The position numbers were made by a program, and so were the translations under genes. Below, piece by piece: positions 4,350-52,158 of a DNA stretch of 64,000 nt (position 1 is the stretch's first letter; every line of letters starts with the position of its first letter). A model generated the notes under the pieces. The model was given only the letters and a program-made list of their open reading frames with translations, was not told the DNA's origin and made no database searches. Location of the stretch: assembly GCA_016214605.1 (NCBI GenBank), contig JACROD010000017.1:1183-65182 (forward strand), given 5' to 3'. The stretch comes from Candidatus Kaiserbacteria bacterium (GTDB lineage: Bacteria; Patescibacteriota; Minisyncoccia; Phycocordibacterales; UBA2100).

Positions 4350-5786
4350 ATGGATTTGACGAAACTCACCATCGCAGAAGCTCGCCGCGCACTCGATGCC
4401 AAGGAGTATTCCGCCCTTGACCTCACCAATGCGTACCTCGATGTCATTCGCGTCAAGAATCCCGAGATCCATGCGTATCTCGAGGTGTGGGAAGAATCGG
4501 CGCGTGCAGAGGCAAAGCGTGCCGACGAAATGATCGCTCAAGGTAAGCAGATGCCGCTCACCGGTATTCCTATTGCGATGAAAGACAATATTCTCATCGA
4601 AGGCCGCATTGCGAGCGCAGCATCGAAGATCCTCGAAAACTACCACGCGTCTTACGATGCGACCGTGACCAAAAAGCTGAAAGTGCAGGGTGCAGTATTT
4701 CTCGGACGCGCCAACATGGACGAATTCGCCATGGGCAGCTCCACCGAAAATTCCGCCTTCGGCCCGAGCAAAAATCCTATCGATCTCTCGCGTGTACCGG
4801 GCGGATCATCCGGCGGCTCTTCGGCGGCGGTCGCGGCTTCCATGGCGCTCGCAGCACTCGGCTCCGACACGGGTGGCTCGATCCGCCAGCCGGCTTCGTT
4901 TACCGGGCTCGTCGGCCTCAAGCCGACCTATGGCGCGGTATCGCGATTCGGCCTCATGGCGATGGGTAGCAGTCTCGATCAGATAGGGCCGCTTACGCGC
5001 ACGACAGAAGATGCGAAGATACTTTTTGATGCGATCAAGGGCAATGATCCGCAGGACAGTACCTCACTGCCAGAAACTGGAAGGTCTGACCTTCCAAGCT
5101 TGGAAGGTCAGACCTTCCAGCGACCGAAGCGCATCGGCGTGCCGCGCTCATTCCTCGCCGAGGGTACCGATCCCGATATCCTCAAGCGTTTCGAAGGGCA
5201 GATACAGAAACTTGCCAAACAAGGATATGAGATCGTTGATATTGAAATGTCTCATGTCCCGTATTCGCTCGCGGTATATTACATCGTCATGCCGGCCGAG
5301 GTCTCGACCAATCTCGAGCGTTTCGACGGCATCCGCTACGGACTCTCCGTGCCTGCGGAAGGGATCAAAGAAGTGTACTCGAAGACGCGTGGCGCGGGTT
5401 TTGGCGCTGAGGCGCGGCGCCGCATTCTTCTGGGAACGTTCGTGCTCTCGTCCGGTTATGCCGATGCGTATTATCGCAAGGCGCGCGCCGTGCGCAGCCT
5501 TATCCGCGACGATTTTATGAAGGCTTTCGAGATCGTCGATGCGGTCGCGACCCCGACGTGTCCGGCGCCCGCGTTCAAATTCGGTTCAAAATCAGATCCG
5601 CTTGCCATGTATATCGAGGACATCTTCAGTACCCCCGCCAATCTCGCGGGTGTACCGGCAATATCCGTTCCGATGGGCGCGGTCAATCGCGACGGCGTTG
5701 ATCTGCCGGTAGGGATTCAGATAATCGCACCTCATCGCCGCGAGGACGTACTCTTTGCGATCGGGACAGATATTGAGCGTGCATAG
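4350..5786 (+). CDS. gatA: Asp-tRNA(Asn)/Glu-tRNA(Gln) amidotransferase subunit A (amidase family)
   Basis: 478 aa. Amidase signature GGSSGGSSAAVAA, GIPIAMKDNI, and overall GatA architecture. It contains an internal 42-bp perfect palindrome (see findings). Confidence 0.9.
   Translation: MDLTKLTIAEARRALDAKEYSALDLTNAYLDVIRVKNPEIHAYLEVWEESARAEAKRADEMIAQGKQMPLTGIPIAMKDNILIEGRIASAASKILENYHASYDATVTKKLKVQGAVFLGRANMDEFAMGSSTENSAFGPSKNPIDLSRVPGGSSGGSSAAVAASMALAALGSDTGGSIRQPASFTGLVGLKPTYGAVSRFGLMAMGSSLDQIGPLTRTTEDAKILFDAIKGNDPQDSTSLPETGRSDLPSLEGQTFQRPKRIGVPRSFLAEGTDPDILKRFEGQIQKLAKQGYEIVDIEMSHVPYSLAVYYIVMPAEVSTNLERFDGIRYGLSVPAEGIKEVYSKTRGAGFGAEARRRILLGTFVLSSGYADAYYRKARAVRSLIRDDFMKAFEIVDAVATPTCPAPAFKFGSKSDPLAMYIEDIFSTPANLAGVPAISVPMGAVNRDGVDLPVGIQIIAPHRREDVLFAIGTDIERA
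5078..5119. repeat. Perfect 42-bp palindrome (19-bp arm, AGCT spacer, 19-bp inverted arm) inside the gatA coding sequence
   Basis: tggaaggtctgaccttcca-agct-tggaaggtcagaccttcca. The second arm is the exact reverse complement of the first. Each arm is itself nearly palindromic about its centre. Confidence 0.9.
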
Positions 5787-6595: not shown

Positions 6596-7927
6596 TTGAG
6601 CGGCGCTATGGACAACCTTCATGATGATGGATCGCAGGTCATACCTCAGGGAGACCTTAGGCCCCGTCCACAAATAAATTCTACAGTTGTGGACGGTGCA
6701 CAAAGGGCTCTAACCACAAATAACGAGTACGTTATTTGTGGAAGACCCCTTAGGTGGGTCGGGACCGCCTTGATACTCGTGTCGATCATTATGCGTGCGT
6801 TCTCGTATCCGGTCACGACATCCGACTATACGGGTTTTTTGAGCAACTGGTTCGCTGTGCTCGCGATGCATCCCGGCCTCACCGCATTTCAAACCGTCTT
6901 TTCGGACTACACTCCGCTGTATCTCTATTTCTTGAAGGCGCTCACTTTTATTCCCGTATCGAGTCTCTATAGTATCAAGACGCTCACGCTGTGTTTCGAC
7001 ATTGTGATCACGGTCTTCGCCGTCTTGATCGTGCGCGCCGCTCAGAAAGGAGCGAGCATAGGTCAGCTGTATCTCTCCGGAGCGATCATGTTCGCTATCC
7101 CGACGCTTTTGATCAATAGTTCGCTGTGGGGGCAATCTGATGCGGTGTACGCGACAGGATGTATTGTGAGCCTGTACTACATACTCAAAGATCGCCCACT
7201 GCTTGCCGTACTCGCATTTGGATTTGCCGTCAGCGTCAAACTTCAGGCGATATTCTTTCTCCCGGTCCTGATAGGATACTTTATGCGCGCGAACGAAAAG
7301 TCGGAATGGTCGATCGTGCGGCTTGGGTATCTGCTTGTCGTCCCGGCGTTCTTCGTACTCACACTCGTGCCGGCGTGGCTCTCGGGGGGATCATTGTCGG
7401 CGCTCGCATTGACCTATGTGCGCCAGTCGGGGGAATATACTGATCTCAACATGTCTTCGCCGAGCGCGTTTGCGTTTGTACAACAGCATCTGCTCTCCAT
7501 ATCGGCACAAAACATACTCCTCTTCGTCGGGATCGGTGCGGCCGCTTTGTGCGCGCTCGGCATCGTCGCGGTAATGTCTTGGACGTCCGCTTCGACATCC
7601 CGTCGGATGATCATCATGCTCGCGTGCCTGTCCGCGCTCGCCGTGCCTTTTTTCTTGCCGCGAATGCATGAGCGGTACTTCTACCTTGCCGACATGTTCA
7701 GCGTACTCTATGCACTTTCGTATCCGCGCATGTGGTATGTACCCGCATTGATCGTATCGGCGTCACTTCTTTCATATGTGCCGTATTTGTCGGGGCAGGT
7801 CGCGCTGTTCTCAAGTCTACAGATCGATCTGAGAATCCCGGCGACGGTATTAGGATTGACGCTCGCGACCCTTTTCTATCAGCTCTTCGCATCGCAGCGA
7901 AGACAAGCAAAATTGTCGAGTGTATGA
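6596..7927 (+). CDS. GT-C fold integral membrane glycosyltransferase (DUF2029/GT87-like mannosyltransferase family)
   Basis: 443 aa with about 11 predicted TM helices. It has an acidic/aromatic first-loop motif (TSDYTGFLSNWF) typical of polyprenyl-phosphate-sugar dependent GT-C enzymes, and lies next to gtrA. Confidence 0.5.
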   Translation: MSGAMDNLHDDGSQVIPQGDLRPRPQINSTVVDGAQRALTTNNEYVICGRPLRWVGTALILVSIIMRAFSYPVTTSDYTGFLSNWFAVLAMHPGLTAFQTVFSDYTPLYLYFLKALTFIPVSSLYSIKTLTLCFDIVITVFAVLIVRAAQKGASIGQLYLSGAIMFAIPTLLINSSLWGQSDAVYATGCIVSLYYILKDRPLLAVLAFGFAVSVKLQAIFFLPVLIGYFMRANEKSEWSIVRLGYLLVVPAFFVLTLVPAWLSGGSLSALALTYVRQSGEYTDLNMSSPSAFAFVQQHLLSISAQNILLFVGIGAAALCALGIVAVMSWTSASTSRRMIIMLACLSALAVPFFLPRMHERYFYLADMFSVLYALSYPRMWYVPALIVSASLLSYVPYLSGQVALFSSLQIDLRIPATVLGLTLATLFYQLFASQRRQAKLSSV

Positions 7928-8337
7928 CCGATGAACACCGAGAGATGATTCGTCAATTCTTCACTTTTGCGGTCATTGGCGTCGCAAATACAGCCATAGA
8001 CTTCGCGATCTATGGCCTGCTGACGCGCCATGTCGGCGTGTTCGACTACCGCACGCCGGGGCGCTATGTAGCAAACGTCATTTCTTTCGGCATCGCGACC
8101 ACATTCAGTTTCTACTGCAATCGCATCTGGACATTCCGCCGTCGCTATCCTGCGCAGATGACGGAGGTGGCACGTTTCTATACGACGACCGTGAGCGGTT
8201 TGCTGTGGAACACCGCGATCTTGTTTGTTTTGAGCAGTATGGCCGGGATCAACGATCTCATCGCCAAGCTCTGTGCGACATTGTTTAGCATGATCTGGAA
8301 TTTCTTTTTCAAAAAATACTGGGTGTTTGCGAAGTAA
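7924..8337 (+). CDS. gtrA: GtrA family membrane protein (polysaccharide synthesis / flippase-associated)
   Basis: 137 aa, 4 TM helices. Motifs FFTFAVIGVANTAIDFAIYGLL and FYCNRIWTFRR match the GtrA-like family. The start overlaps the upstream stop (ATGA). Confidence 0.7.
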   Translation: MTDEHREMIRQFFTFAVIGVANTAIDFAIYGLLTRHVGVFDYRTPGRYVANVISFGIATTFSFYCNRIWTFRRRYPAQMTEVARFYTTTVSGLLWNTAILFVLSSMAGINDLIAKLCATLFSMIWNFFFKKYWVFAK

Positions 8338-8340
8338 GGA
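8312..8340 (+). repeat. Direct repeat copy 1 (3' end of gtrA including its stop codon)
   Basis: aaaaaatactgggtgtttgcgaagtaagga is repeated with 2-3 mismatches at 8704-8735. Confidence 0.8.
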
Positions 8341-8703
8341 TTATGTACACAAAGTATCTTTCCCTTCTGCTCAAACGCGCCAACGTACCCGTCGTGATCT
8401 TGGATGAATTCGCTCGCAAACTTCGTCTGAATCCTCAAAAATAAAAAAACCCCCGGATACGCCGGGACGTATCAAGGCCCCCCTTCTTGTTTATAAAGAC
8501 ATAATATATCCTGTTTCATTCGTGTCAATGGTTTGGCGTGTTAGTAACGGGATTTCAGGGTATCATCTGCGAGAGCATAGACGAACCTTCGATAGGCAAC
8601 AAGATTTTTAGATGAGTACTTTGTGTGGATGTATAATTATTACCACATGGAAACTTACCAACCAAAAAACCAAGAATATTCTTTCATAAGAAAATCATAT
8701 CGC

Positions 8704-8735
8704 GAAAGATACTGGGTGTTTGCGAAGTAGGGATT
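8704..8735 (+). repeat. Direct repeat copy 2 (duplicate of the gtrA 3' end)
   Basis: gaaagatactgggtgtttgcgaagtagggatt. It flanks a roughly 360-bp low-GC non-coding segment and abuts the HEPN/MNT pair. Confidence 0.8.
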
Positions 8736-9063
8736 ACACCACGATACCGTGCGCGCGGATCTCTTCTATAACGGGAGAGTTGCTTTGTTCCAGGTCCTCA
8801 GGCGAAAGCGGGTACGGTTCGATGCGGATATCCGCAAAGCGCGTCTTTTTCCAAAGAGTCTGCATCTCTTCCACATCGTCATGGCCGAACTGCGGCGACA
8901 CGACGGCAAGATCAATATCACTGCGAGGATTTGCCAGTCCTTTTGCGTATGAACCAAACAGAATCATCTTCTGCACGGGAATGCCGGAGGACTCCACGAC
9001 GCTTCGAAAACGAGCGGCGCTTTGCAGGACGTCTTGATCTATTGTTATTGTGTTTTGAGCCAT
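8734..9063 (-). CDS. Minimal nucleotidyltransferase (MNT) antitoxin, Pol-beta superfamily
   Basis: 109 aa. Motif LFGSYAKGLANPRSDIDLAV (GS...DxD) matches the polymerase-beta type nucleotidyltransferase fold. It overlaps the upstream HEPN gene by 19 nt. Confidence 0.75.
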   Translation of the reverse strand: MAQNTITIDQDVLQSAARFRSVVESSGIPVQKMILFGSYAKGLANPRSDIDLAVVSPQFGHDDVEEMQTLWKKTRFADIRIEPYPLSPEDLEQSNSPVIEEIRAHGIVV

Positions 9064-9431
9064 ACAAGGATATGTTCGGTTTCGCGCAGATAGTTTTCCG
9101 TATATTCCGTGGTCGCCTTCTTGTAAAATTGCGACTTGAATTCATCATAGCGGCCTTTGATGTTGAAGGTGTTGATTTCCGCCAAGCTCTCTTGCATGGT
9201 ATCGGAAAGCTGCAATCCGGCGTCAGACGCCAGGCGTTGCAGGTTGTGATCATAGGCGGCGTTTGCGTTTGTCTTGCGGACAACGAGCGCCTTCAAGAGT
9301 TTCTCAATCGCAAGATGACAGAAAAAGAGTGCGTAGGTATTGCGGTTTGAGGCAAGAAGCATCTGCGCGACCGCGAAGTCCTCACCGCTCTTCTCGCGCC
9401 AGAATTGCTGGATGTGTTCAGTATCAAACAT
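9045..9431 (-). CDS. HEPN domain protein (toxin partner of MNT; HepT-like)
   Basis: 128 aa. HEPN-like helical protein (HLAIEKLLKALV ... NIKGRYDE) in the classic HEPN-MNT two-gene arrangement. Confidence 0.7.
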   Translation of the reverse strand: MFDTEHIQQFWREKSGEDFAVAQMLLASNRNTYALFFCHLAIEKLLKALVVRKTNANAAYDHNLQRLASDAGLQLSDTMQESLAEINTFNIKGRYDEFKSQFYKKATTEYTENYLRETEHILVWLKTQ

Positions 9432-9681
9432 ATAATGTCATACTACCGCGTTTCCATGGATTTATCCATGCCTCCTCGTGTTGCGCCCAGTGTTCACCAA
9501 AAGATCACGAATGCAAACGTGATCTTTTTCTCTTGGTACGAATCAGTGCGAAAAACAAGGCTCGGAATCTTCATGAGATTTGCTCTTGCGCGATTATTTT
9601 TGCCGGGCAAAAATAGTGAAGGTTTTATGAATCGGGATGGAGCGATTCGTCGCGCCGTTCCATAGACAATAAAAAATAAGT

Positions 9682-11445
9682 ATGTATTCAAAAGCAAAAA
9701 TTATCGACCTACAGAATGTGTCTCGCGTCTTCATCGTGTGTCTCACGGCAATCGTACTGTCGTTCGTGCACCCCGGCATCGCGAGCGCGGCTTCGGTCAA
9801 TCCTTGGTGGCCGGTAGACGGCGCGCACATGACGGGCGTTCAGCCGTTCAAGGCCGAGCTCTCGGGCGTCTCGGTCGATCAATACCAAATGTACTGGCAA
9901 GTCGACGGCGGCGGGCAGGTCGCGATGGACTCCAACTACACCGGCTATCCGCACAAAGAAGCATCGGTCAACGTCACGCTGTGGACATGGCGCGGGGCGG
10001 GGCCGTACACGGTGACCTTCGTCGCCAAGCAAAACGGCGCGATAGTCGCACAGCAATCGGTCTCGATATACAACGACGCATACACGCCGACTGTGACGAC
10101 ACCCATTGCGCCGACCCCGGCGCCTGCACCCGCTTCATCTGCACCGGTAGTATCGATCACGCAACCGGCGCCTGTACCGGCTCCCACTCCAGCCCCGACG
10201 CAAGTACAGATCAATGTCTGGTGGCCGACTGCAAACGCGACCGTGAGCGGCGTGCAACCCTTCAAGGCGATGATCGCCGGTATGGATACTTCGACGTATA
10301 GCATGTACTGGCAAGTCGACGGCGGTACCTTGAGCGTCATGAGCAACGACAACACCGGGTATCCCCACAAGGAAGCTTCGGTCAATGTCGGCGCGTGGAA
10401 TTGGAATGCGAGCGGGAACTACATGGTCACCTTCACCGCGAAAAACGCAAGCGGAAGCGTGATCGGACAGGTGAGTATTCCGGTACACATTCCCGTCACG
10501 ACGATCACCCAGTCTCCGCAAAATGCTACGGCGGGCACGGTCTCGCAACCAGCGACGACCTATAGCGGCAATCCGCTTGCAGGCATGACATTCTGGGTCA
10601 ATCCCCATTCGTCTGCCGCCTCACAAGCAGCCGCATGGAGCTCAAGCGACCCGACCGATGCGGCGCTCATGCGGATGCTCGCGGCACAGCCGACTGCGCA
10701 ATGGTTCGGCGGTTGGAATAGCAACATCCAAAACGACGTGCACGCCACGGTCGCGAGCGCACAAAGCGCCGGTGCTGTGCCTGTGCTTGTTGCGTACAAC
10801 ATCCCGTTTCGTGATTGCGGCGGATATTCTGCCGGAGGAGCCACAAGCTACGCAGCGTATACGAGCTGGATACAATCCTTCGCGGCAGGTATCGGCAGTG
10901 CCAAAGCCGTCGTGATCCTCGAGCCCGATGCGCTCGCGACGATCTCGTGTCTCTCGTCGAGCGATGCACAGACGCGGCTCACACTCCTCACCAATGCGGT
11001 AACGACGCTCAAGACAAACAGCAACACCAAAGTGTACATCGATGCCGGACACACGGGCTGGATCGATCATGCGCAGATGGCCAATGAACTGCGATCAGCA
11101 AATGTCGCTCACGCAGACGGATTCGCGCTCAACGTCTCCAACTTCGGTTGGACGAGCGACAACACCGCCTATGGCACTCAGATCTCCAATGACCTCGGCG
11201 GCGCGCACTTCGTGATCGACACCTCGCGCAACGGCCTCGGATCCACGCCCGATAATCAATGGTGCAATCCGGCGGGTCGCGGTATAGGTACGCATCCGAC
11301 CACGGCGACCGGCAATTCGCTGATCGATGCGCTCCTCTGGCTCAAAGTTCCCGGCGAATCCGACGGCAATTGCAACGGCGGTCCAAATGCCGGCACTTGG
11401 TGGTCCTCCTATGCCGTCGGTCTAGCCCAGCGAGGCGTGCAGTAA
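9682..11445 (+). CDS. Secreted glycoside hydrolase family 6 (endoglucanase/cellobiohydrolase-type) with two N-terminal tandem beta-sandwich-like domains
   Basis: Signal peptide. Two roughly 100-aa repeats (WWP...GVQPFKA...MYWQVDGG...GYPHKEASVNV...) are separated by a Pro/Thr/Ala linker. The catalytic domain carries GH6 signatures YNIPFRDCGG and VVILEPDALA, plus WLKVPGESDG. Confidence 0.8.
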   Translation: MYSKAKIIDLQNVSRVFIVCLTAIVLSFVHPGIASAASVNPWWPVDGAHMTGVQPFKAELSGVSVDQYQMYWQVDGGGQVAMDSNYTGYPHKEASVNVTLWTWRGAGPYTVTFVAKQNGAIVAQQSVSIYNDAYTPTVTTPIAPTPAPAPASSAPVVSITQPAPVPAPTPAPTQVQINVWWPTANATVSGVQPFKAMIAGMDTSTYSMYWQVDGGTLSVMSNDNTGYPHKEASVNVGAWNWNASGNYMVTFTAKNASGSVIGQVSIPVHIPVTTITQSPQNATAGTVSQPATTYSGNPLAGMTFWVNPHSSAASQAAAWSSSDPTDAALMRMLAAQPTAQWFGGWNSNIQNDVHATVASAQSAGAVPVLVAYNIPFRDCGGYSAGGATSYAAYTSWIQSFAAGIGSAKAVVILEPDALATISCLSSSDAQTRLTLLTNAVTTLKTNSNTKVYIDAGHTGWIDHAQMANELRSANVAHADGFALNVSNFGWTSDNTAYGTQISNDLGGAHFVIDTSRNGLGSTPDNQWCNPAGRGIGTHPTTATGNSLIDALLWLKVPGESDGNCNGGPNAGTWWSSYAVGLAQRGVQ

Positions 11446-11447
11446 GA

Positions 11448-12946
11448 TCACTGACGCGCGAGCGGCGTGTCGTATCGCAACTGATACACGTACAGATCAA
11501 GGTCGCGGGAGAAATGCTCAGTGCCGATCCGGCGATAATGCTGATCGAAGTATGATTTAATCGTCTGTTCGTATCCTTGATCGTAGCTCAAGACGAGCCA
11601 TGCTTTCTGATAGCCGTCCGTGAGCGTAGCGACTTGTGCGGGGAGCTGTGCAGGAGAGAATGCGGGTATCGGACCGGTATCGTAGCGGTTCCATATCGGC
11701 AGTGTCGCGAGTGTCGCGGGAGAATGATAGTAGTATTCTATCGGATAGATCGTAAACGGCGTGGAGAGTATGATCGTATCTTGCGGTCCGGCATGTTCGT
11801 TGATGTATGTCACTACCTGCCGATAATTCTCTTTGACCGGTGTCGCGGGGCTCTGGATCTGTATCACGAGCCCCGCGACCATGACGATCGCGACGCTCCA
11901 CCGCGCCGCTTGCGCCAATCGCGGCGGATATGCATCGAAAAAGTGCGCCAACACCAGATACAATGACGGAACGGTAAAGATGAGGTAGCGGCTGACGAAT
12001 ACGGGCGTTAAGACGAAACTTCCGATAAAGAGGGCGGCGAACGAGCATATGATAGTGTACAAGAAATACTCGGTCTCGAAACGGAATCTTGCGCCGCGTC
12101 GCAGCGCGAGAAATACCAAGATCACGGTGATCGGCCAGAGCGATACGAAGATCGTGTTGAGTGTATCGTCTTGAAATCCGAACACGAACTGGGAGAATGT
12201 ATTGAAGAGATCGACGGTCGTTGGAGGCATCAAGAGGGGAAGTTGCATCCCAGCTTCTTTCAGTGCGTACACATACCACACCCATGGCGCGAATGAAAAG
12301 ACGAGTACGGCCGCGACGATGCTGAATCGCGCCAACGACCGCGGAGGAAACAACGAGCGGTGCAGGAAATAAAATACGGCTTGCGCCGCCAAGCTCAAAA
12401 AGAACAGATAGTGCGTATAGATGCCGAGCATCGCGGTCGTCCCGTAGCCGATCCATATGCGAGCGCTGCCTTGCTTGATGATCCGCAGGAAGAAGAATTG
12501 ATTGAGTATGATGAGCAGAGTGAAGAGCGCATACATGCGTATCTCATTGCCGTACCAATTCATGAATGGAGAGAGGCCGAAGAGGACCGACGCATACAGT
12601 CCCGTCGAACGGGAATACGCAAGGCGTCCCAGTATATAGATTGCGGGGATCGACAGGATATAGAACACGAGCGAGAGCGAGCGTGCGGCGGCGACAGAGC
12701 TGCCGAACGCGACGCGCCACATATGCAGCAGTATGTGGAAGAGCGGCACATGCACATCCTTGGCGACGATCATCAGTAGCGCGGACGGACTCCGGCCCGA
12801 TTCCCAGAGGCTCTGTGCTTCATCGAGTCGCAAGCTCTGCGGCAAGAGAAAGAAGACCGAGACGGCGGCGCAAAAGATCATGGTCGACATGAGTATGATG
12901 ACTGTGCTCCAAAAATGCCGTCTTTCTCGCGGCGGATTAATCTGCA
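11448..12946 (-). CDS. GT-C membrane glycosyltransferase of the ArnT/PMT (GT39/GT83-like) family
   Basis: Multi-TM protein. The first periplasmic loop has LRLDEAQSLWESG (DE motif), and the C-terminal soluble domain is present. The ORF-track start (13064) overlaps the upstream gene, so the start is probably the ATG at 12946. Confidence 0.6.
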
Positions 12947-14532
12947 TATGAACTTTGCGTTTGCATAAGCTGTCCCGGGCTGAGGATATCTTCTCTCCGC
13001 AAGGCTTCCTCGGCGGATCTTTGTACGGCGACGGCGGCGTTTGCTTTCTCCGGCCATGACGCATAGATAAAGGGTATAAAGATCGTCACGTTGAAGAGGG
13101 CCCACATGCTGTTGTTGAGGAGCGATGCAGTCACTCCTTCTCGGTCGTATGCGACCACTATCCCGACCAATGCGAGCGCGCAGTAGAACAAGTGCCATTT
13201 GACGATCGGAAGGAAGTTTCCTTCGAGCGCTCGTTTCGACGTGACAAGAAAATCATTTTTCCTCCCGGTGAGTGCCGCGAAAAACGCCGCCGTGTGAATG
13301 CTGAACGATCCCATGGAAAAACCGAGCGACCGGAAGGTGAAGTGTGCGTTCGATACGCGCTGAATGACATAGAATGTCAGGAAGATATAGGGAAGAAAGA
13401 TGGCGGCGAGAAGCATGCTATTCATCTGTACCGCGACCGCTCCCGTATAAAAGAATGCGATCGGCAAGAGCGCATCGATCATAACGACGATGCCGGAAAG
13501 GTAGAAACTTGCCGAAGAGAGATATTGTATGCGCTGCGCTCCGGTGAGGCCGCGCATAAAGAGCGGATTGTAGCGGAAAATGACGTCGAATGCGCCGCGC
13601 GCCCAGCGGAACTGCTGTGTCGAATATGAGCGCAGATCTTCCGTCGCGAGACCCTCTGCCAGTACTTCGGGCACGTATACCGATCGATACCCTCGCGCAT
13701 GCATAAGCAGGCCGGTGACGAAGTCTTCGGCGATACTGTCGGTCTTCATGCCGCCGACCGTCGCGAGCGCCGCACGTGAGATGACCATGTTGGTGCCGCA
13801 GAGGGTCGCGCTATTGAGGCGATTCTTGCCCTTGCAAATGGGCCCGAAGAAAAGCTCCTGCTGTTCCCATGAGCCGTTGGTGAGGTGACTCTTTTCGAGA
13901 TTCTTGTAGAACTGCGGCGTCTGCACGAACGCGACCTTATCATCGACGAAATACGGCACGGTCTTTGCGAGGAAGTCGGCATGCGGCACATGATCCGCGT
14001 CGAAGATGGCGATGAGCGGGCTTCGCGTGAGCGACAGCGCGTGATTGATGTTGCCGGCCTTCGCGCCTCCGGGTATCTGTCGCGTGATGCACGAGACACC
14101 GAGACGCGCGGCCAATGTCTCCATGTCGCGCCAATTCTTTTTGCCGGCGACGTACCCATCATTCAAGATATATACCTTGAACGATGGGTACGTCATCTGC
14201 TTGGCGGCGCGCACCGTTGCTTCCATGATCTCGATGGATTCGCCCGCAGCGGTGATATATACGTCGACCGAAGGACGCAGCAGCGTATTGCGCGGTGCGA
14301 TGTGGCGGGTGTCCCATACCGTGTAGAGGAACGTGAGCACTTGCCACAAGTGAAACGCCTCACCCGCGATGAGAAAACCGAACAGTATGCGATTTCCCGG
14401 CATGAAGAAAAAGGTGATCGCTATAAAATAAGTGATCGCCATGATCGCGTTGAAGGCAAGAAGCACGCGGGGCGATTCCGTCCTGAGAAAAGAATGTTTC
14501 CGGTCGCTCATGTCGTAAACATATTTCATAGG
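12937..14532 (-). CDS. Processive family-2 beta-glycosyltransferase, cellulose synthase (BcsA/CesA)-like, no PilZ domain
   Basis: Motifs DGY, FDADHVP (DxD), ATEDL (TED) and QQFRWARG (QxxRW), with TM helices on both sides. The likely start is MKYVYDMSDRK at 14532. The longer ORF-track start overlaps the GH8 gene. Confidence 0.75.
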   Translation of the reverse strand, partial: PMKYVYDMSDRKHSFLRTESPRVLLAFNAIMAITYFIAITFFFMPGNRILFGFLIAGEAFHLWQVLTFLYTVWDTRHIAPRNTLLRPSVDVYITAAGESIEIMEATVRAAKQMTYPSFKVYILNDGYVAGKKNWRDMETLAARLGVSCITRQIPGGAKAGNINHALSLTRSPLIAIFDADHVPHADFLAKTVPYFVDDKVAFVQTPQFYKNLEKSHLTNGSWEQQELFFGPICKGKNRLNSATLCGTNMVISRAALATVGGMKTDSIAEDFVTGLLMHARGYRSVYVPEVLAEGLATEDLRSYSTQQFRWARGAFDVIFRYNPLFMRGLTGAQRIQYLSSASFYLSGIVVMIDALLPIAFFYTGAVAVQMNSMLLAAIFLPYIFLTFYVIQRVSNAHFTFRSLGFSMGSFSIHTAAFFAALTGRKNDFLVTSKRALEGNFLPIVKWHLFYCALALVGIVVAYDREGVTASLLNNSMWALFNVTIFIPFIYASWPEKANAAVAVQRSAEEALRREDILSPGQLMQTQSSYAD

Positions 14533-15785
14533 CTTGCTTGATCTAGTGATAATCGGGGAAGGGATGCGGCGATGTTTGGGAGGAGGTCGTTGTACAATGC
14601 GATGCCGAACCATGCCCAGTTGTCGCCGTAGTACGACATGTCGGTATTCCACGTATTGTTATCGGGGCTGAACAAGCTTTCCAGCTTCGTCGTGTACACG
14701 ACGGGCGCGAGTGAGGGATCGACCGTCATGAAATATCCGATCGTGCCGCCGTACATGGCCGGCGATTCATGCGCTGTGCCGGTCGCCGTCGATCCGTCGT
14801 GCGCGTATGTCGCGTACAGAAAGCTGTTTTTGTTCCATTCTTCCGAAAGGAACGAGAATCTCTTGAGTATGGCTTGGTCGTGCGAGTCGTGGAACCATTG
14901 CCAGTCGAGCGTAAGCCGCCACGGCAGCCGCAAGGCGTTGTATCCGAAATCGGTCGTGGTCTCGGGAGTGTCATGCAAAGGTTCGATCGCGCCGGTCTGC
15001 TTGTGGATGCGTATCCAGTCGGGTGGCAGATCGGCGCTCTTTTTCTTGTCGAGGGTGCTATCCGATGCGCGCGCGATCAGATCATATGAACTATCGACAA
15101 GCTCCAGCCATGGGTGTGCGGTGTCGATCCGGGCGAAAATGCGAAAAGCAGCCGGATTCAAATAGGACGGATTGACCGCCGCCCATGGAGACGTCGAAGT
15201 CTTCTCAAGGCTGTCGGCTGTGAGATATGGTGTCCCTTGTATGGTGATGACCTCGGCATTCCAGATAGCCGCGATGGTCGTGCTCGCACTCTCGAGGTAC
15301 GCGGGATCTTGCCAGCGTGCATATGCGAACACAAGCGACAACGCGATATCCACGTCTGCATCAGATGCGCTCGTCATTCCGCCTTGGTCGGCGAGTATTC
15401 CGTAGGTGCCGTCGCCCTGCTTTCCGTAGAGCCATGCAAACACATGATCGGGGCGTTCGAGCGCGCGGTGCGTCCAACCCCACGAAGTGTCGAATGTCTC
15501 CTTGTCTCCCATCCAGACGGCGCGCATCATCGTATAGCTTTGTCCTTCGGACGTTGTTGTATTGTTGTGGCCTGGATCGATCGTGCGTCCGTCGCTCGCA
15601 ACATACACTTTTTTGTAACTGTTCCACAATGCGGACAACATCTGTGGAGGCGAAAAGACGAGCGCTTTACTCCCTTGATGAACGCTAAAATAGCCGCCTC
15701 CGGCCACGCCAGCGATCATCACGGCGCCCAAAAGACAGTTCGCGACTCGGGATCTTTTCATGTTATATGCGGGCCTGTTCATCAT
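14526..15785 (-). CDS. Glycoside hydrolase family 8 endoglucanase (BcsZ-like)
   Basis: N-terminal TM/signal. Has TSEGQSY and the GH8 signature ASDADVDIALSLVFAYARW. Confidence 0.8.
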   Translation of the reverse strand: MMNRPAYNMKRSRVANCLLGAVMIAGVAGGGYFSVHQGSKALVFSPPQMLSALWNSYKKVYVASDGRTIDPGHNNTTTSEGQSYTMMRAVWMGDKETFDTSWGWTHRALERPDHVFAWLYGKQGDGTYGILADQGGMTSASDADVDIALSLVFAYARWQDPAYLESASTTIAAIWNAEVITIQGTPYLTADSLEKTSTSPWAAVNPSYLNPAAFRIFARIDTAHPWLELVDSSYDLIARASDSTLDKKKSADLPPDWIRIHKQTGAIEPLHDTPETTTDFGYNALRLPWRLTLDWQWFHDSHDQAILKRFSFLSEEWNKNSFLYATYAHDGSTATGTAHESPAMYGGTIGYFMTVDPSLAPVVYTTKLESLFSPDNNTWNTDMSYYGDNWAWFGIALYNDLLPNIAASLPRLSLDQASL

Positions 15786-16549
15786 AGCGATCTTGGGTTG
15801 GCGTGAACCATATCTTGGTGCGGAATGGACGGCGCAATAAGAGAAGCCGAACCCAGTTCACTCATATAAAGGGACAGAAGTTCGCGGATCGCGCGGAAGA
15901 TGACCGACGGTTTTGCTCCGGTCGGCGATCCATAGATGCGTGGTAAATGAGAGACCGGTACTTCTTTGATCGGGATGCCGCGCCGCATCAATCGGACCAA
16001 AAGTTCCGCATTGACCATCGCGCCGTCGGACGTGATCCGTATTTGTTTGATCACGGAGCGCTCGAATAGCTTGAACGCGCAATCAATATCGCGTATCCGC
16101 AGGCCGAAAAAGATCCTATTGAGAATATTCCAGCCCTTTGCATTGACCAGCCGCATGAACGAATCGCGCCGCGGTGCACGGTATCCTGTTACAACACAGT
16201 ACTCAGGCACATGGATCACCAAATGCTCCAGTTCCAAGAGGTCGAATTGCATATCGGCATCCGTGAAAAACACGTATTGCATGCGCGCTTCTTGGAATCC
16301 TGTCTTGAGCGCGGCACCATAGCCCTGGTTTGTCGGGTGATGCACGGTGCGGACCTCCGTATGGCGCTGGGCGAGCAGATCGGCGAGTGCGGGAGTTGCA
16401 TCGGTGCTCCCGTCGTCGATAATCACTATTTCATACGCTTTCACATACGGGCATTGCCTCGCAACGTCAATCGCGCGCTCCACCATGGAGACGATATTCC
16501 GCTCCTCATTGAAGGTGGGAAAGAAGATACTGATCGATATTTGTCGCAT
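15782..16549 (-). CDS. Family-2 glycosyltransferase, polyprenyl-phosphate sugar synthase (DPM1/GtrB-like)
   Basis: 255 aa. Motifs IVIIDDGSTDAT and FTDADMQFD (DxD). It is the first gene of a minus-strand operon that continues into the GH8, BcsA-like and GT-C genes. Confidence 0.75.
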   Translation of the reverse strand: MRQISISIFFPTFNEERNIVSMVERAIDVARQCPYVKAYEIVIIDDGSTDATPALADLLAQRHTEVRTVHHPTNQGYGAALKTGFQEARMQYVFFTDADMQFDLLELEHLVIHVPEYCVVTGYRAPRRDSFMRLVNAKGWNILNRIFFGLRIRDIDCAFKLFERSVIKQIRITSDGAMVNAELLVRLMRRGIPIKEVPVSHLPRIYGSPTGAKPSVIFRAIRELLSLYMSELGSASLIAPSIPHQDMVHANPRSL

Positions 16550-34497: not shown

Positions 34498-34570
34498 GCC
34501 GGCGTAGCTCAGTGGTAGTAGCATCGCACTCATAAAGCGAAGGTCACAGGTTCGATCCCTGTCGCCGGCA
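34498..34570 (+). tRNA. tRNA-Met (CAT), elongator type, or tRNA-Ile2 if lysidinylated
   Basis: GCCGGCGTAGCTCAGTGGTAGTAGCATCGCACTCATAAAGCGAAGGTCACAGGTTCGATCCCTGTCGCCGGCA. A 7-bp acceptor stem, T-arm GGTTCGATCC and anticodon loop CTCATAA. No CCA. Confidence 0.75.
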
Positions 34571-34657
34571 CTAGCAGTCGCTCGCGGCCAATGGTCGCAC
34601 GAAGGTTCTTGAGGCCCACATAAATGGTTATAGTAATGTACTGTCATGGTATAATTT

Positions 34658-35344
34658 ATGCGCATGACAAAGAAGACCCTCGACCAAGACTTCTTCAAGA
34701 ATTGGGCCCCGACCATGGCCTATGTGCTTGGATTTTTTGCCGCCGACGGCACGATGATCAAAAATAAGCGAGAGGGACATTTCATAGAGTTTCACATTAC
34801 TGATCGTAAGCTACTCTTTGATATACGACGCGCCGTAAGTTCTAATCACAAGATTGCCATACGTGTACGAAATCCAAAATGGAAACTAGGATATCGGTTG
34901 CAGATAGGATCCAAGAGATGGTTTTCCGACCTCCAGAGATTGGGTTTTTCTTCTCGTAAGAGTAATGTAATGCTCTTCCCAAATGTGCCGGATGAATTTC
35001 TCGGTTCGTTTATACGGGGTTATTTTGACGGAGATGGATGCGTATATTTCAAAAATCTGAAGTTTGCCGACCGTAAGAAGGCTCGATGGATATTAATGTC
35101 TGTTTTTACGTCAGGCAGTCGACAATTTCTCATGCAACTTCACACTGCACTGAAAAGACATGGTGTGCAGGGAGGGTCTATTCGAAATAAAAAGAGCGGG
35201 TATGACCTCTCCCTGAGCCACAAAGATAGCCTTGCATTATATCGTCTTATGTATGATACTGTGTCCGATACAAGCATTATGTTGCCCAGGAAATATCGTT
35301 TATTTACTAAGGCGATTAATACATTGTATCCTTTGCGGCCGTAG
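34658..35344 (+). mobile_element. Free-standing LAGLIDADG homing endonuclease (double-motif)
   Basis: 228 aa with two LAGLIDADG motifs (LGFFAADGT and IRGYFDGDGCV). Local GC is lower than in the flanks. The stop codon TAG lies inside the acceptor stem of the downstream tRNA-Asp. Confidence 0.8.
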
Positions 35345-35409
35345 CTCAACTGGTTAGTAGCACCCGCCTGTCACGCGGGAGGTTGCCGGTTCAAGTCCGG
35401 TCGGCCGCG
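35335..35409 (+). tRNA. tRNA-Asp (GTC)
   Basis: GCGGCCGTAGCTCAACTGGTTAGTAGCACCCGCCTGTCACGCGGGAGGTTGCCGGTTCAAGTCCGGTCGGCCGCG. Anticodon loop CTGTCAC, discriminator G. Confidence 0.8.
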
Positions 35410-35414
35410 CATAG

Positions 35415-47486: not shown

Positions 47487-48308
47487 ATGAAAGAAAACAC
47501 ATTCGAGTCGATAAAAAGAATTGATGAAAACGGCAGGGAATATTGGTCTTCACGGGAGCTTGCCAAAGTACTGGAGTATGCAGACTACCGTAAATTCCTC
47601 AATGTTACAGACAAAGCAAAGGTGGCGTGTGAAAATAGTGGAGAAGTTATCCACAACCATTTTGTCCATACGGACGAAATGGTTCCGATTGGTTCAGGGG
47701 CCGAAAGGCCTGTAGACACGATCTTTCTTTCTCGGTATGCTTGCTATCTGATCGTCCAAAACTCCGATCCGACTAAAGTCGTCGTGGCAAAAGGTCAGAC
47801 GTACTTTGCGATCCAGACTCATCGACAGGAGAAGGCAGATAACTTGATCGAAGACCACAACCGCGTCTTCCTCCGTGAGGAGATGAAGAAGCACAACACG
47901 AGCCTGATCCAGACGGCGTCTCAGGCAGGTGTAGAAAGCTTCGCCATCTTTCAAAACGCTGGATATAAGGGCTTGTACGGGGGACGTACGATGCAAGATA
48001 TACACACAAAAAAGAAACTGAAGAAGTCACAGAAGATTCTTGATCACATGAACAGTGAAGAACTTGCCGCCAACCTCTTCCGAGCTACCCAAACAGACGC
48101 AAAGATCAAGCGTGAAAATATCAGAGGCCAAGGGAGTGCAAACCTAGCACACTACGAGGTCGGTCAGAAGGTTCGTGCCACGATTGCCAATCTGGGCGGA
48201 ACAATGCCGGAAGAACTCCCGACCCCTGATGCTATCGGTAAAGCACAAACGCGAATAAAGAAGGCGCAGGGAGTAAAGAAACTTGGAAAAGGGAAAGGTA
48301 CTCTGTAA
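47487..48308 (+). CDS. DinD-like (DNA-damage-inducible protein D / Bro-N-like) protein
   Basis: FESIKRIDENGREYWSSRELAKVLEY ... TRYACYLIVQNSDP ... AKGQTYFAIQT resembles E. coli DinD (... GQEFWSARELAPLLGY ... TRYACYLVVQNGDP ... AQTYFA). Confidence 0.55.
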   Translation: MKENTFESIKRIDENGREYWSSRELAKVLEYADYRKFLNVTDKAKVACENSGEVIHNHFVHTDEMVPIGSGAERPVDTIFLSRYACYLIVQNSDPTKVVVAKGQTYFAIQTHRQEKADNLIEDHNRVFLREEMKKHNTSLIQTASQAGVESFAIFQNAGYKGLYGGRTMQDIHTKKKLKKSQKILDHMNSEELAANLFRATQTDAKIKRENIRGQGSANLAHYEVGQKVRATIANLGGTMPEELPTPDAIGKAQTRIKKAQGVKKLGKGKGTL

Positions 48309-49458: not shown

Positions 49459-49611
49459 GTCGTTGGACCACCAACCTAGGATTGCACCTGCTTCATATGG
49501 TCGTCTATTGACACCGATATAATGTGTATGGTATACTGAAACCAGCTGATGGATCAAGGGATTCCCTCGCGATTCCAGGACAGCTCATTTACAAACTACA
49601 GGAGACTGACC

Positions 49612-50319
49612 ATGCCGAAAGGTATGCTCGGGAATAGCGAAGTGCTCCGCCGCATCATGAGCGGACCGTTCGCCGACCTCGCCGTTAAACTCAATAGCGA
49701 AGACTCGGATGAGTGGGAGGCAGCCCTCGGAACTTTCTTGCGCAAGGAGCCCACGTGGGTGGGCGGCGCAGTTGCCAATGTCGAAAAGGTGAAACCCCCG
49801 ACCCTCGTCCTCATCCAGACGGCGACTCTCGGCAAGATCGAGGGCAAGGAGACCCGCAGTTGCTTCGCCGGCGCCATCTGGGGCTATCGGGACAGTGACA
49901 TAGACCGCTGGTTTCCCGCGCGACAGATCGCGCAAACGGCCGGTTCGGTCGGAGTCTATCAGCTTCAGAATCCGAAAGGCACCGCCTTCCGGGAAATGGC
50001 GCTGGCGGCTCTGAAAGCCTCACCCGATACCTCCAACGACCAACTCGCCAAGATGCTGAAGGAGCGCGGACTCACGTTCACGATCCAAGCCATCGAACGA
50101 CTGGTCGAAAGGCAGGAAAGCGGCGAGGACGTCGGTTTGCGTACCGATGGTTACGCGAACCTTGCGTTCGCTGAAGACGCGAACGGGAGCGTCTCGGTTC
50201 TCCGTGTCGGCCGCAGCGTCGACGGGTGGGGCGCCTACGTCTACCGGTTCGGCGACGGCGGCAGGTGGCGTGCCGAGTACCGTCTGCTTCTCCGCAACTC
50301 GGTCACTGCGACGCTCTGA
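49612..50319 (+). CDS. DGR target protein (variable protein) with the C-terminal variable repeat
   Basis: 235 aa. RBS AGGAG before the ATG at 49612. The last roughly 36 codons coincide with the VR, and the TR-encoded version is rich in AAC codons. There is no signal peptide. The N-terminal domain has unknown fold. Confidence 0.7.
   Translation: MPKGMLGNSEVLRRIMSGPFADLAVKLNSEDSDEWEAALGTFLRKEPTWVGGAVANVEKVKPPTLVLIQTATLGKIEGKETRSCFAGAIWGYRDSDIDRWFPARQIAQTAGSVGVYQLQNPKGTAFREMALAALKASPDTSNDQLAKMLKERGLTFTIQAIERLVERQESGEDVGLRTDGYANLAFAEDANGSVSVLRVGRSVDGWGAYVYRFGDGGRWRAEYRLLLRNSVTATL
50189..50295 (+). repeat. DGR variable repeat (VR), at the 3' end of the target gene
   Basis: 107 bp aligned without gaps to the TR at 50578-50684. 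All 17 mismatches fall at positions that are A in the TR (AAT->CGT, AAC->GGC, ACG->GCG, A->T and so on). The 3' 24 bp gccgagtaccgtctgcttctccgc is identical (IMH-like). Confidence 0.85.
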
Positions 50320-50577
50320 CACTTGGACCCTTGCATTGGTCCCGTACCCCGCACTTCTGGAAACGGAAGTCGCGGGGTATATTTATGCATGAACACGCTG
50401 GCATCTCCGGTCTGGCTTTTGTTTTGGACTTGAGGTGGCGAGGTTCGCACTTCTTCAAAAAAAGAAGAGAGTTGGTGCGCTGTGCTCGCGGGCTTGCGGC
50501 CCCACATCAGATACAGCCCGGAGAGTATTCTATGGGCAGTGGCCTTCGCGGGCGTCATGGATGGCACGGCGCACGAA

Positions 50578-50684
50578 GCGTCTCGGTTCTCAATGTCAAC
50601 CGCAACGACGACAGGTGGAACGCCAACGTCAACCGGTTCGACGACGGCAACAGGTGGAATGCCGAGTACCGTCTGCTTCTCCGC
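50578..50684 (+). repeat. DGR template repeat (TR), non-coding, between the target gene and avd/RT
   Basis: A-rich template with five AAC and one AAT codon-equivalents that are substituted in the VR. No ORF covers it in frame with a plausible start. Confidence 0.85.
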
Positions 50685-50708
50685 CACTCACTCCTTTCTC
50701 CCCTAGCC

Positions 50709-51050
50709 CTATGCTCGGGGAGTTTTCGTTTCCAAATACTCCTTCCAACCGACGAGCATTTTGCTCGCCTCTACGAGCGGAGCCGAGAGATGTGCATATT
50801 GTTTGTCTGTGACCATGTCGATTTCCCAGCCGACAAGCAAAAAGAACTTTACCAAATCAAGGCGAACCACGGCGGCTTCAATTGCCGTTACTTTTTGTTG
50901 CCCCGATAGATAGCTGGCGCGGAAGGCCCATTCGAGCGTGGCAAGAAACAACTCATCTATCTTCTCGCCGAGCGTGCGTCGTTGTGTTTTAGCGATGTGC
51001 GGCAGGAGCCCTTGCCAGAGGCCGTAGGAATCTTTCAATACCAACACCAC
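50709..51050 (-). CDS. avd: Avd-like accessory variability determinant (four-helix-bundle protein / 23S rRNA IVS protein family)
   Basis: 113 aa. LKDSYGLWQG (cf. FKDLxVWQKA), then helical segments ending ... ASKMLVGWKEYLE (cf. KMLNGLIKSL) typical of the bAvd family. It is divergent from the RT. Confidence 0.6.
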   Translation of the reverse strand: MVLVLKDSYGLWQGLLPHIAKTQRRTLGEKIDELFLATLEWAFRASYLSGQQKVTAIEAAVVRLDLVKFFLLVGWEIDMVTDKQYAHLSAPLVEASKMLVGWKEYLETKTPRA

Positions 51051-51102
51051 GGGGACGAATTTTGGTTGCTGAATCGTGCGGGGGGGGGGTACGCTTTGAA
51101 GA

Positions 51103-52158
51103 ATGAGCGGAATCCGGTTTATCCATACCTATGAGGATATCATTTCTGTAGAAAATTTGCTCGCGGCATGGCGGGAATTTTTGAGAGGCAAACGCAAGAA
51201 GGATGACGTGCGCAAGTTTCAATACCATCTCTCCGACAACATCCTCGCGCTCCATCGCGACCTTAAGGACAAAACATACCGCCATGGCGCATACGAAGCC
51301 TTCAAGATCAATGACCCCAAGCCGCGCGATATCCACAAGGCGACGGTGCGCGACCGCCTGCTCCATCACGCGATCTACCGACACCTCTATCCATTTTTCG
51401 ACCACACCTTCATCGCGGATTCGTATTCATGCAGAAGAGGGAAGGGTACACACAAGGCGATGGATCGTTTCAGGTCATTCGCATACCAAGTATCCAAGAA
51501 TCACACGCGCACGGTATGGGTCTTGAAATGCGATATCAAGAAGTTTTTCGCATCCATCGACCAAGCCACACTGTTTGCTATCGTCGCGCGATACATCCCC
51601 GACAAGGACATCAGCCGACTCATTGGCGAGATCATCGGGAGTTTCCAGACCCACACAACTATGCCTATAGGACGATCTGTGTGTATGGAAAAGAGAAAAG
51701 GATTACCGCTCGGTAATCTCACTTCGCAACTGCTCGTGAACATCTATATGAATGAGTTCGACCAGTTCGTGAAGCACAAACTCAAAGCAAGACACTATGT
51801 GCGTTATGCCGACGATTTCGTGGTCATGAGTACGGATCGAGTATGGCTTGAAGGACTGATCCCGCTTATCGCGCGATTCCTCGACGAGCGCCTTGCGCTT
51901 TCGCTCCATCCAAACAAGGTCTCAATCGCAACACTTGCATCCGGTGTCGATTTCTTGGGATGGGTGCATTTCTCCGATCATCGGGTACTACGAACGACGA
52001 CAAAGCGTCGAATGTTGCGGCGCACCGCAGACCTTGAAAAAGACGACCCCACCGTACGGTCTTATCTTGGGATGCTGAGCCATGGTAATGGGGAGAAATT
52101 ACGGGACATGGTAACGAAAACAGTTTTTGCTTTACGCGAACCGAGCAAGCTAAAGTGA
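51103..52158 (+). CDS. Diversity-generating retroelement reverse transcriptase
   Basis: 351 aa. RT motifs 1-7 with YADD (RYADDFVVM). DGR hallmark motif 4 GLPLGNLTSQLLVNIYMNEFD (I/LGxxxSQ in place of the QGxxxSP of other RTs). N-terminal ENLLAAWREFLRGKRKK. No maturase/X or endonuclease domain. Confidence 0.85.
   Translation: MSGIRFIHTYEDIISVENLLAAWREFLRGKRKKDDVRKFQYHLSDNILALHRDLKDKTYRHGAYEAFKINDPKPRDIHKATVRDRLLHHAIYRHLYPFFDHTFIADSYSCRRGKGTHKAMDRFRSFAYQVSKNHTRTVWVLKCDIKKFFASIDQATLFAIVARYIPDKDISRLIGEIIGSFQTHTTMPIGRSVCMEKRKGLPLGNLTSQLLVNIYMNEFDQFVKHKLKARHYVRYADDFVVMSTDRVWLEGLIPLIARFLDERLALSLHPNKVSIATLASGVDFLGWVHFSDHRVLRTTTKRRMLRRTADLEKDDPTVRSYLGMLSHGNGEKLRDMVTKTVFALREPSKLK

Follow-up and report, generated by a model that had tools for sequence, protein, structure and literature searches.

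What brought about 1.2 kb of extra DNA to the end of gtrA, and by what route two genes came to lie between gtrA and its terminator, are the questions raised by a locus of Candidatus Kaiserbacteria bacterium (GenBank assembly GCA_016214605.1). We analysed it within a 64,000-nucleotide stretch of contig JACROD010000017.1 (positions 1,183 to 65,182), referred to here as the window. In this locus the last codons of gtrA recur downstream as a direct repeat, and beyond the second copy lies a minus-strand pair of genes for a HEPN-domain protein and an MNT-type nucleotidyltransferase. The original prediction, made from the letters of the window, had read this arrangement as an integrated element carrying a copy of its target gene's 3' end, with the toxin-antitoxin (TA) pair as possible cargo of a larger island. 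Our analysis instead favours, with a probability of roughly 60%, two successive insertions of small cassettes, stacked at the gtrA 3' end and made without an element-encoded recombinase.

The gtrA 3' end and its single-copy counterparts in relatives

The GtrA protein of the window is 100% identical to an NCBI protein from a Candidatus Kaiserbacteria metagenome-assembled genome (MAG), and the gtrA ATG overlaps the stop codon of the GT87 gene upstream. The duplication predicted for its 3' end was borne out: the repeat comprises the final eight gtrA codons, the stop codon and six further bases, its two copies are identical at 30 of 32 positions (31/34 over 34 nt), and a 21-nt exact core lies at 8316-8336 and 8709-8729. 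A 28-nt pattern covering both copies had exactly two matches in the 64 kb and none in 100 shuffles. The copies start 393 nt apart, rather than the 390 bp first given, and the three differences counted between them are all A in copy 1 and G in copy 2. The edges of the repeat are sharp, with upstream identity of 19/60, a value equalled or exceeded at 93 of 500 other offsets. A decayed tandem copy of the whole gene (spacing 393, gene length 414) was considered and rejected, as tblastn recovered only the YWVFAK end and identity at that offset was the same 19/60. The gtrA and MNT stop codons are convergent, with 3 nt between them, and both lie within the duplicated 32 nt; copy 1 holds the gtrA stop and copy 2 holds the MNT stop on the other strand, and gtrA is intact.

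Two relatives, loci L081 and L084, encode GtrA proteins 74% and 72% identical to that of the window and share with it the gene order gatA, a gene for a 233-residue protein, GT87, gtrA, GH6, a PMT_2 glycosyltransferase and a GT2 cellulose-synthase-like gene. The gap between gtrA and GH6 measures about 180-206 bp in these relatives versus 1,344 bp in the window. Homology by blastn ends at 8328/8329 and restarts at 9558/9560, so that the extra DNA of the window, approximately 1.2 kb, falls within a non-homologous stretch at 8330-9557. When 8344-9475 was excised, the window became colinear with both L081 and L084 through the gtrA end, a short variable spacer, a terminator hairpin and the GH6 leader. 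The gtrA end is single-copy in both relatives; the first 17-18 nt of the repeat (gtrA codons through GTGTTT) align to that single end, and the last 15 nt are lineage-specific, the relatives differing mutually there. Clusters of Adlerbacteria and Kaiserbacteria more distant than L081 and L084 likewise lack the HEPN-MNT pair. As two relatives have the empty site and the distant clusters are without the pair, about 1.2 kb was gained by insertion in the lineage of the window. The empty site that the original prediction had proposed to seek is therefore present, and the relatives carry one copy of the repeated sequence, as expected of an insertion boundary rather than a conserved regulatory element. 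A GtrA of 74-100% identity, which would mark an intermediate relative, was absent from a protein collection of 5.8 billion clusters.

The right-hand limit of the inserted DNA was placed at about 9476-9557, just ahead of a hairpin that matches by position the hairpins following gtrA in L081 and L084. Given the colinear alignment with these relatives, a fold z-score of -4.55 and the T-run behind its arms, this hairpin is the ancestral gtrA terminator, now 1.16 kb from the gtrA stop. The larger island once envisaged thus contracts to a total insertion of about 1.2 kb. Beyond it, the GH6 leader aligns to L081 (window 9558-9721, 71%) and to L084 (window 9560-9633, 76%) by blastn. A second perfect hairpin lies at 9595-9615 (10-bp arms), so that both perfect hairpins reported within 9432-9681 were found.

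The GH6 leader contains a non-coding block conserved at 71-76% in the three lineages (window 9558-9681, L081 5167-5290, L084 5999-6105), with the pattern …CTTCATGA..TTTGC.CTTG.GC…GGTGAAG.TTTTATGAATC…; it had no match in Rfam, and the palindrome at 9595-9615 is not conserved in the relatives. The block may be a leader or regulatory element of the polysaccharide cluster, which is kept in Kaiserbacteria and Adlerbacteria (window 6596-16549, L081 3350-12279) and includes GT87-like, GtrA, GH6, PMT_2/GT39-like, GT2 cellulose-synthase-like, GH8 (in L081) and further GT2 genes, in an order that varies between lineages.

The bracketed segment and the HEPN-MNT pair

The repeat copies enclose 361 bp, which the original prediction had described as an AT-rich, non-coding segment of roughly 40% GC between flanks of roughly 58%. 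The first value stood (41%) and the second did not, as the neighbouring genes are at about 50% (gtrA 50.7, MNT 51.8, HEPN 48.8). The GC content of intergenic DNA elsewhere in the window lies between 38 and 58%, with a mean of 47.5, and low GC was accordingly set aside as proof of foreign origin, for which homology to an NYN gene serves instead. The longest start-containing open reading frames (ORFs) in the segment are 33-36 codons, and its fold z-score is +0.6. A structured RNA or riboswitch was sought both here and in 9432-9681 and rejected, as Rfam gave nothing at its gathering thresholds, nor at E<=5.

The small ORF and the short hairpin that had been noted in the segment are both present, at 8343-8444 and 8450-8467. 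Searched with phmmer against 1.84 billion representative proteins, the 33-residue product of this ORF was 68% identical to residues 132-159 of P0021, a 167-residue protein (E=6e-4) in which the NYN domain PF01936 was confirmed; conversely, a tblastn search of the whole window with P0021 gave one hit only, to the same place (E=1e-7). At the DNA level, window 8438-8507 is 77% identical to 4475-4544 of locus L177 (E=4e-11), and this similarity passes the stop codon into the downstream flank of the NYN gene. As L177 is 31% GC, this part of the insert comes from a low-GC lineage. The NYN domain is incomplete, with a counterpart only to residues 132-167 of the 167-residue homologue, a premature stop and decayed final codons; the ORF is a gene stump and not a gene. 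The segment is therefore foreign-derived as supposed, but the view of it as an anonymous spacer has to be given up. The hairpin at 8450-8467 falls within the decayed last NYN codons, and L177 does not share it. A minus-strand small RNA gene, with 8528-8501 (11/12) as its promoter-like site and 8467-8441 as its terminator, was rejected on account of this position and lack of conservation, and such sites were as frequent in shuffled sequences. No relatives of 8508-8703 were detectable, the insert had no further copy in the window or, apart from the NYN homology, in 179 loci, and homologues of the AT-rich DNA were absent from phage and plasmid collections.

A second truncated NYN 3' fragment was observed in L178 (3001-3237) and L179 (233-469), where 78 codons preceded by stop codons lie beside a bAvd gene on a 40%-GC contig. 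This suggests that NYN genes are often partners in such rearrangements, their ends recurring as stumps.

Pfam searches confirmed both genes of the minus-strand pair, which overlap by 19 nt as noted earlier. The pair lies outside the repeat, which encloses the 361-bp remnant only. Residues G37, S38, D49, I50 and D51 of the MNT protein are invariant across 12 homologues, yet the protein scored 38 bits against the NCBIfam MntA model NF047752, whose cut-off is 60 bits. The HEPN protein had no match in the PDB or NCBIfam, and the expression R.{4,6}H, which represents the Rx4-6H motif, found no match in its 128 residues. As the HEPN protein is without Rx4-6H and the MNT protein falls below the curated cut-off, the pair should not be classed as a type VII HepT-MntA system, and the earlier label of toxin for the HEPN protein is putative. 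A GGTAnnAT box before the HEPN gene was seen by eye to be common to the window and loci L088, L091, L092 and L093. The features of the locus are collected in Table 1.

Table 1. Features of the gtrA-GH6 interval and their positions in the window
Feature	Positions	Strand	Remarks
gtrA, target gene (137 aa)	7924..8337	+	Pfam GtrA_DPMS_TM, E=1.8e-24
Direct repeat, copy 1	8312..8343	+	working gtrA end KKYWVFAK, stop TAA, plus GGATTA
AT-rich insert between repeat copies	8344..8704		361 bp, 41% GC, without intact gene or structured RNA
NYN/LabA (PF01936) gene 3'-end remnant with about 40 nt of downstream flank	8351..8507	+	phmmer, tblastn and DNA match
Direct repeat, copy 2	8705..8736	+	'retired' gtrA end ERYWVFAK, stop TAG; last 3 nt TTA are the MNT stop (minus strand)
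MNT-type nucleotidyltransferase, second gene of unit (109 aa)	8734..9063	-	Pfam NTP_transf_2 3e-11, Polbeta 3.4e-9
HEPN-domain protein (PF05168), first gene of unit (128 aa)	9045..9431	-	Pfam HEPN 2.9e-15
HEPN-MNT promoter region	9432..9476	-	GGTAnnAT box about 10 nt before ATG; palindrome 9455-9470, 7-bp arms
Ancestral gtrA terminator hairpin	9499..9528	+	11-bp perfect arms, then T-run; fold z=-4.55
Conserved GH6 leader, right limit of insertion	9558..9681	+	homology to relatives restarts here

Related HEPN-MNT units and the origin of the insertion

The closest relative of the HEPN-MNT unit, with an MNT protein 85% identical to that of the window, lies inside a liv-like ABC operon, between the genes for a periplasmic binding protein and an ABC ATPase, and was recovered in three independent assemblies (L086 from JGI, L087 from ENA and L088 from Logan); the S7 protein of this contig is 93% identical to that of Kaiserbacteria. 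DNA homology between the window and L088 begins precisely at the HEPN ATG and ends at the MNT stop (9431..8735, 78.6%), and the promoter is loosely similar. Other units follow a citrate-synthase-like gene (L089, L090, L093, L094) or lie between obg and gatB (L091). By these placements, the HEPN-MNT unit is a mobile two-gene cassette.

Duplicated gene ends accompany several of these units. In L088 the flanking duplicate is a diverged version of about the first 40 nt of the ABC gene lying downstream; in L089 and L094 it consists of some 110-120 nt from the 3' end of the gene lying upstream. Scanning metagenome contigs with the MNT alignment yielded 80 loci, in which 55 units had enough flanking sequence; 9 of these 55 had tight direct-repeat flanks (29-166 nt, 82-96% identity), versus 8 of 2,400 random 750-nt intervals in unrelated loci. 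In the seven clear gene-end cases, defined by an unmistakable overlap between the repeat and the end of a long ORF, 80 of the 112 mismatches between copies (71%) fall at third codon positions, an excess with p=2e-16 against one third and p=1e-8 against the approximately 45% expected from neutral drift of a retired copy, and the retired copies carry frameshifting indels. As mismatches concentrate at third codon positions, the copies in these cases diverged as working gene ends in different lineages; for these cases only, they are diverged alleles and not fresh target-site duplications, which is what capture of another lineage's DNA through a homologous anchor would predict.

The 20-kb locus L086 (1-19916; JGI 3300009777, Ga0105164_10000678), a Kaiserbacteria-like contig, has its liv-like ABC operon, rpmB and rpsG interrupted by at least eight accessory cassettes, among them PemK, AAA_14/DUF4143 (twice), Fic/RhuM, NYN, SocA, HigB, ParE (three times), HicAB and HEPN-MNT, many of which are divided by copies of the 5' or 3' end of an adjacent gene (47-128 nt, 70-93% identical). 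The rpmB 3' end occurs three times, between the AAA_14/DUF4143 gene and a ParE pair; the rpsG 3' end twice, around another ParE pair; the 5' end of the ABC ATPase gene four times, between the NYN, SocA and HigB cassettes; and the 5' end of the permease gene twice, around the second AAA_14 gene. Insertions with gene-end repeats are common around the HEPN-MNT pair in related bacteria.

The reading we prefer for the gtrA locus begins with a HEPN-MNT unit, about 0.75 kb long and equipped with its own promoter, which would have landed convergent with gtrA in the space that separates the gtrA stop from the terminator. A piece bearing an NYN/LabA gene, from a low-GC lineage, would then have entered the same gtrA end and duplicated a target of 32-34 bp that runs from the last eight gtrA codons through the stop of that gene and the 3-nt spacer to the MNT stop. 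This order is the most likely one, because the repeat includes GGATTA, whose TTA is the MNT stop, which would place the duplication after the arrival of the HEPN-MNT unit. Since the duplicated 32 nt covers both convergent stops, both genes could survive the second insertion: copy 1 would serve as the gtrA end, and copy 2 as a retired end that also provides the MNT stop. The NYN gene may have arrived as a whole cassette that later lost its first roughly 134 codons, or as a mere captured fragment, leaving the 361-bp stump in either event; as NYN cassettes occur in the L086 stacks, decay is slightly favoured.

As a likely mechanism we infer homology-anchored recombination, in which the incoming DNA would carry the cassette beside another lineage's copy of the gene end. 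This might proceed by one-sided homologous invasion with an illegitimate join, during break repair or transformation, or by a single crossover of a circular molecule made of cassette and gene end. The resident gene end would remain behind the cassette as a retired copy, selection would retain only products that restore the gene, and the flanking repeats would permit subsequent loss through homologous recombination. Homology-anchored capture would account for the variable repeat lengths, the allele-like divergence, the use of both 5' and 3' ends and the stacking.

Several observations weigh against this account. The nearest relatives are just 72-77% identical in DNA, and an intermediate state was not seen. 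The repeat brackets the NYN stump only, and no second repeat was found for the HEPN-MNT step, the best candidate for a decayed third copy upstream of HEPN (GTGTTGCG at about 9478) being not significant (p=0.14). The order of the two steps depends on 3-6 nt of the repeat (GGATTA with the MNT stop), and the repeat itself, with 32 nt and three differences, is too short for the allele test to apply. When all 14 repeat pairs were pooled, including those with doubtful ORFs, 78 of 158 mismatches were at third positions, which is indistinguishable from the 45% expectation. The recombinase scan was limited to the approximately 1.2-kb insertion (8330-9557) and 20 further ORFs of the window, and the mechanism is deduced from end products alone.

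Among other explanations, an unlikely one is site-specific integration, by which a tyrosine or serine recombinase encoded elsewhere would have used an attachment (att) site in the gtrA 3' end and left the 361 bp as a remnant between attL and attR, similar to a cis-mobilizable element (CIME). Elements that enter protein genes at either end, 3' or 5', and restore the ORF are well known (PMC5704250), the exact core lies in a repeat at a gene's 3' end, the mismatches lie near its outer edges as in attL/attR hybrids, and an inverted match of 14/16 (8347-8362 against 8704-8719) would make the reconstructed attP palindromic. Against this, Pfam identified no recombinase, integrase or transposase gene in the insertion or the 20 scanned ORFs. 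Related HEPN-MNT units occupy different genes at many sites without reuse of an att core: their repeats are unrelated and 29-166 nt long, 15 repeats from different sites had no common motif (at most 4 of 15 shared any 6-8-mer), the distance from MNT stop to repeat varies (0, 10, 17 or 54 nt), and the units have no conserved ends. The exact core was absent from viral contigs and the degenerate repeat pattern from JGI metagenome contigs, and a dif/Xer-like site was rejected by eye as the 11-6-11 palindromic architecture is missing. The inverted arms, moreover, are 20 nt apart, which is excessive for the core of a tyrosine recombinase, and the left arm is NYN coding sequence. The inverted match pairs the beginning of the NYN stump with the gtrA-derived left part of copy 2, and is created by exactly the two A-to-G differences of that copy; it may have been left by a fold-back or template-switch step, hint at a recombination site, or be due to chance, and we leave it unexplained. 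The insertion proposed in the original prediction is upheld, and an integrase or att system found no support.

The same inverted match, near the ends of a short non-coding insert within a direct repeat whose copies are nearly identical, as if fresh, could also point to a miniature inverted-repeat transposable element (MITE)-like unit with 16-nt terminal inverted repeats, moved by an enzyme making staggered cuts (transposase-, casposase- or Cas1-like) and duplicating its target de novo. We consider this improbable, as the right arm of the single inverted pair is part of the direct repeat derived from gtrA, the inserted DNA is the stump of a gene rather than a defined element, and it is single-copy in the window and absent from the 179 loci and the phage and plasmid collections, unlike an insertion sequence or MITE; the related repeats have no fixed stagger, and copies elsewhere differ chiefly at synonymous sites. 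No more credible is an ancestral long spacer between gtrA and GH6 that was deleted in L081 and L084, with the repeat arising by local duplication or slippage. Patescibacteria genomes are prone to deletion, and the empty state is defined by just two moderately distant relatives; these two are nevertheless separate, the more distant clusters agree with them, and they retain the order of terminator and leader with a spacer of normal length, while the HEPN-MNT unit is present at unrelated sites and the bracketed DNA has its relative in a gene from an organism of 31% GC. Finally, as the window derives from a MAG, a chimeric join might have produced the duplicated 32-mer, but we regard such an artefact as very unlikely indeed, since the same architecture occurs in L086, L087 and L088, which come from different samples and assemblers, the copies differ at three positions, and both junction genes are intact.

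Elsewhere in the window, a complete diversity-generating retroelement occupies 49549-52158. Its target ORF (49549-50319) has the variable repeat at its 3' end (50188-50300), and of the 17 mismatches between this and the template repeat (50577-50689), 16 coincide with adenines of the template. The system is completed by a bAvd-like gene on the minus strand (50709-51050) and a gene for a reverse transcriptase (51103-52158; RVT_1, 3e-23). An ORF with a BRO-N domain (47487-48308, E=7e-12), which is frequent in proteins of phages and mobile elements, lies about 1.2 kb upstream of the target gene. Between tRNA-Met (34498-34571) and tRNA-Asp (35335-35410) lies a LAGLIDADG_3 homing-endonuclease-like ORF (34658-35344, E=7e-15), the end of which extends into the tRNA-Asp gene.

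Relation to known systems

The locus bears on the open question of how, in the absence of transposases and integrases, solitary TA and defence cassettes pass from one chromosome to another. Together with its relatives it provides concrete end products, namely an empty site, a variable gene-end duplicate and, in the relatives, diverged alleles, and these suggest that foreign DNA is captured through homologous anchors in a bacterial group believed to rely on DNA uptake. For the window itself the consequence is modest, as gtrA and the polysaccharide (cellulose-like) cluster are intact and the gap between gtrA and its terminator is 1.16 kb of foreign DNA; the wider pattern in the relatives is more interesting than the window locus. 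We raise only tentatively the possibility that Kaiserbacteria and related Patescibacteria have a general, recombinase-free way of capturing and stacking defence and TA cassettes at the ends of housekeeping genes. If true, the gene end would act as the attachment site, recombining with another lineage's copy on the incoming DNA, and integron-like arrays would result in which cassettes are set apart by retired gene-end alleles, the gtrA locus being one small, partly decayed case.

Like members of the type VII HepT-MntA family (PMC7641770, PMC11586414), the pair is an overlapping two-gene operon for a HEPN protein and a minimal nucleotidyltransferase, but the HEPN protein of the window is of the PF05168 type, is encoded upstream of MNT and is without Rx4-6H, and its toxicity is putative. 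Integrase islands and CIMEs (PMC5704250) resemble the locus in their repeats of protein-gene ends, restored ORFs, tandem accretion with repeat copies and integrase-less remnants, and differ in that here an integrase was not found in the DNA scanned, there is no common att core or defined end, and sites and repeat lengths vary. TA islets are tiny chromosomal islands with a TA system only and no mobile-element genes, for which transfer by transformation or by recombination at flanking core genes has been proposed (PMC13617665). The islet model involves two flanking homologies and predicts no duplication, whereas the junction in the window is marked by a gene-end duplicate.

The cargo-only satellites of tycheposons, in Prochlorococcus islands, are reportedly small integrase-less units in arrays with partial target-gene copies between them, and are said to sit at tRNA genes and to rely on tycheposon integrases; in the window-type loci, it is protein-coding genes whose ends serve as targets, and an integrase was not seen. 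Homology-facilitated illegitimate recombination, reportedly described by de Vries and Wackernagel in 2002 and by Prudhomme et al. in 2002, is said to combine one homologous anchor with one illegitimate junction and to need no dedicated recombinase. Such a process would explain the variable junctions and the allele-like repeats, although its products are said to show mostly deletions at the junction and not duplications, and we know of no demonstration of it in Patescibacteria.

The best fit is to the class termed insertion with long target duplication, of which we consider the locus a small and partly decayed instance. This class was described for restriction-modification (RM) genes by the Kobayashi group (Furuta et al. 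2010, PMC2853133), with an earlier account in Nobusato et al. 2000 as related in the same paper. Its marks are an empty site in a relative, where the target is single-copy, the absence of mobility genes, and direct repeats of variable length, above 30 bp, that often cover the start or stop of translation and thereby keep the target gene intact; most examples are from naturally competent bacteria, the mechanism is unexplained, and DNA breakage by RM systems has been suggested as a cause (PMC2853133). Four of the five defining features are found in the window, and for the fifth, alignment of the whole repeat with the empty site, relatives 72-77% identical allow a partial comparison. The insert is well below 20 kb (361 bp within the repeat, about 1.2 kb overall), its genes are MNT, HEPN and the NYN stump only, and the locus shares with the class the lack of a mobility gene, the empty site, the intact target gene and the long variable repeat, which at 32 nt narrowly exceeds the 30-bp limit. 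It differs in the stacking of insertions at a single gene end, in a repeat of minimal length, and in the copies of related loci, which are diverged alleles rather than identical duplicates. The cargo, an HEPN-MNT pair and an NYN gene in Patescibacteria, would extend insertion with long target duplication past RM genes.

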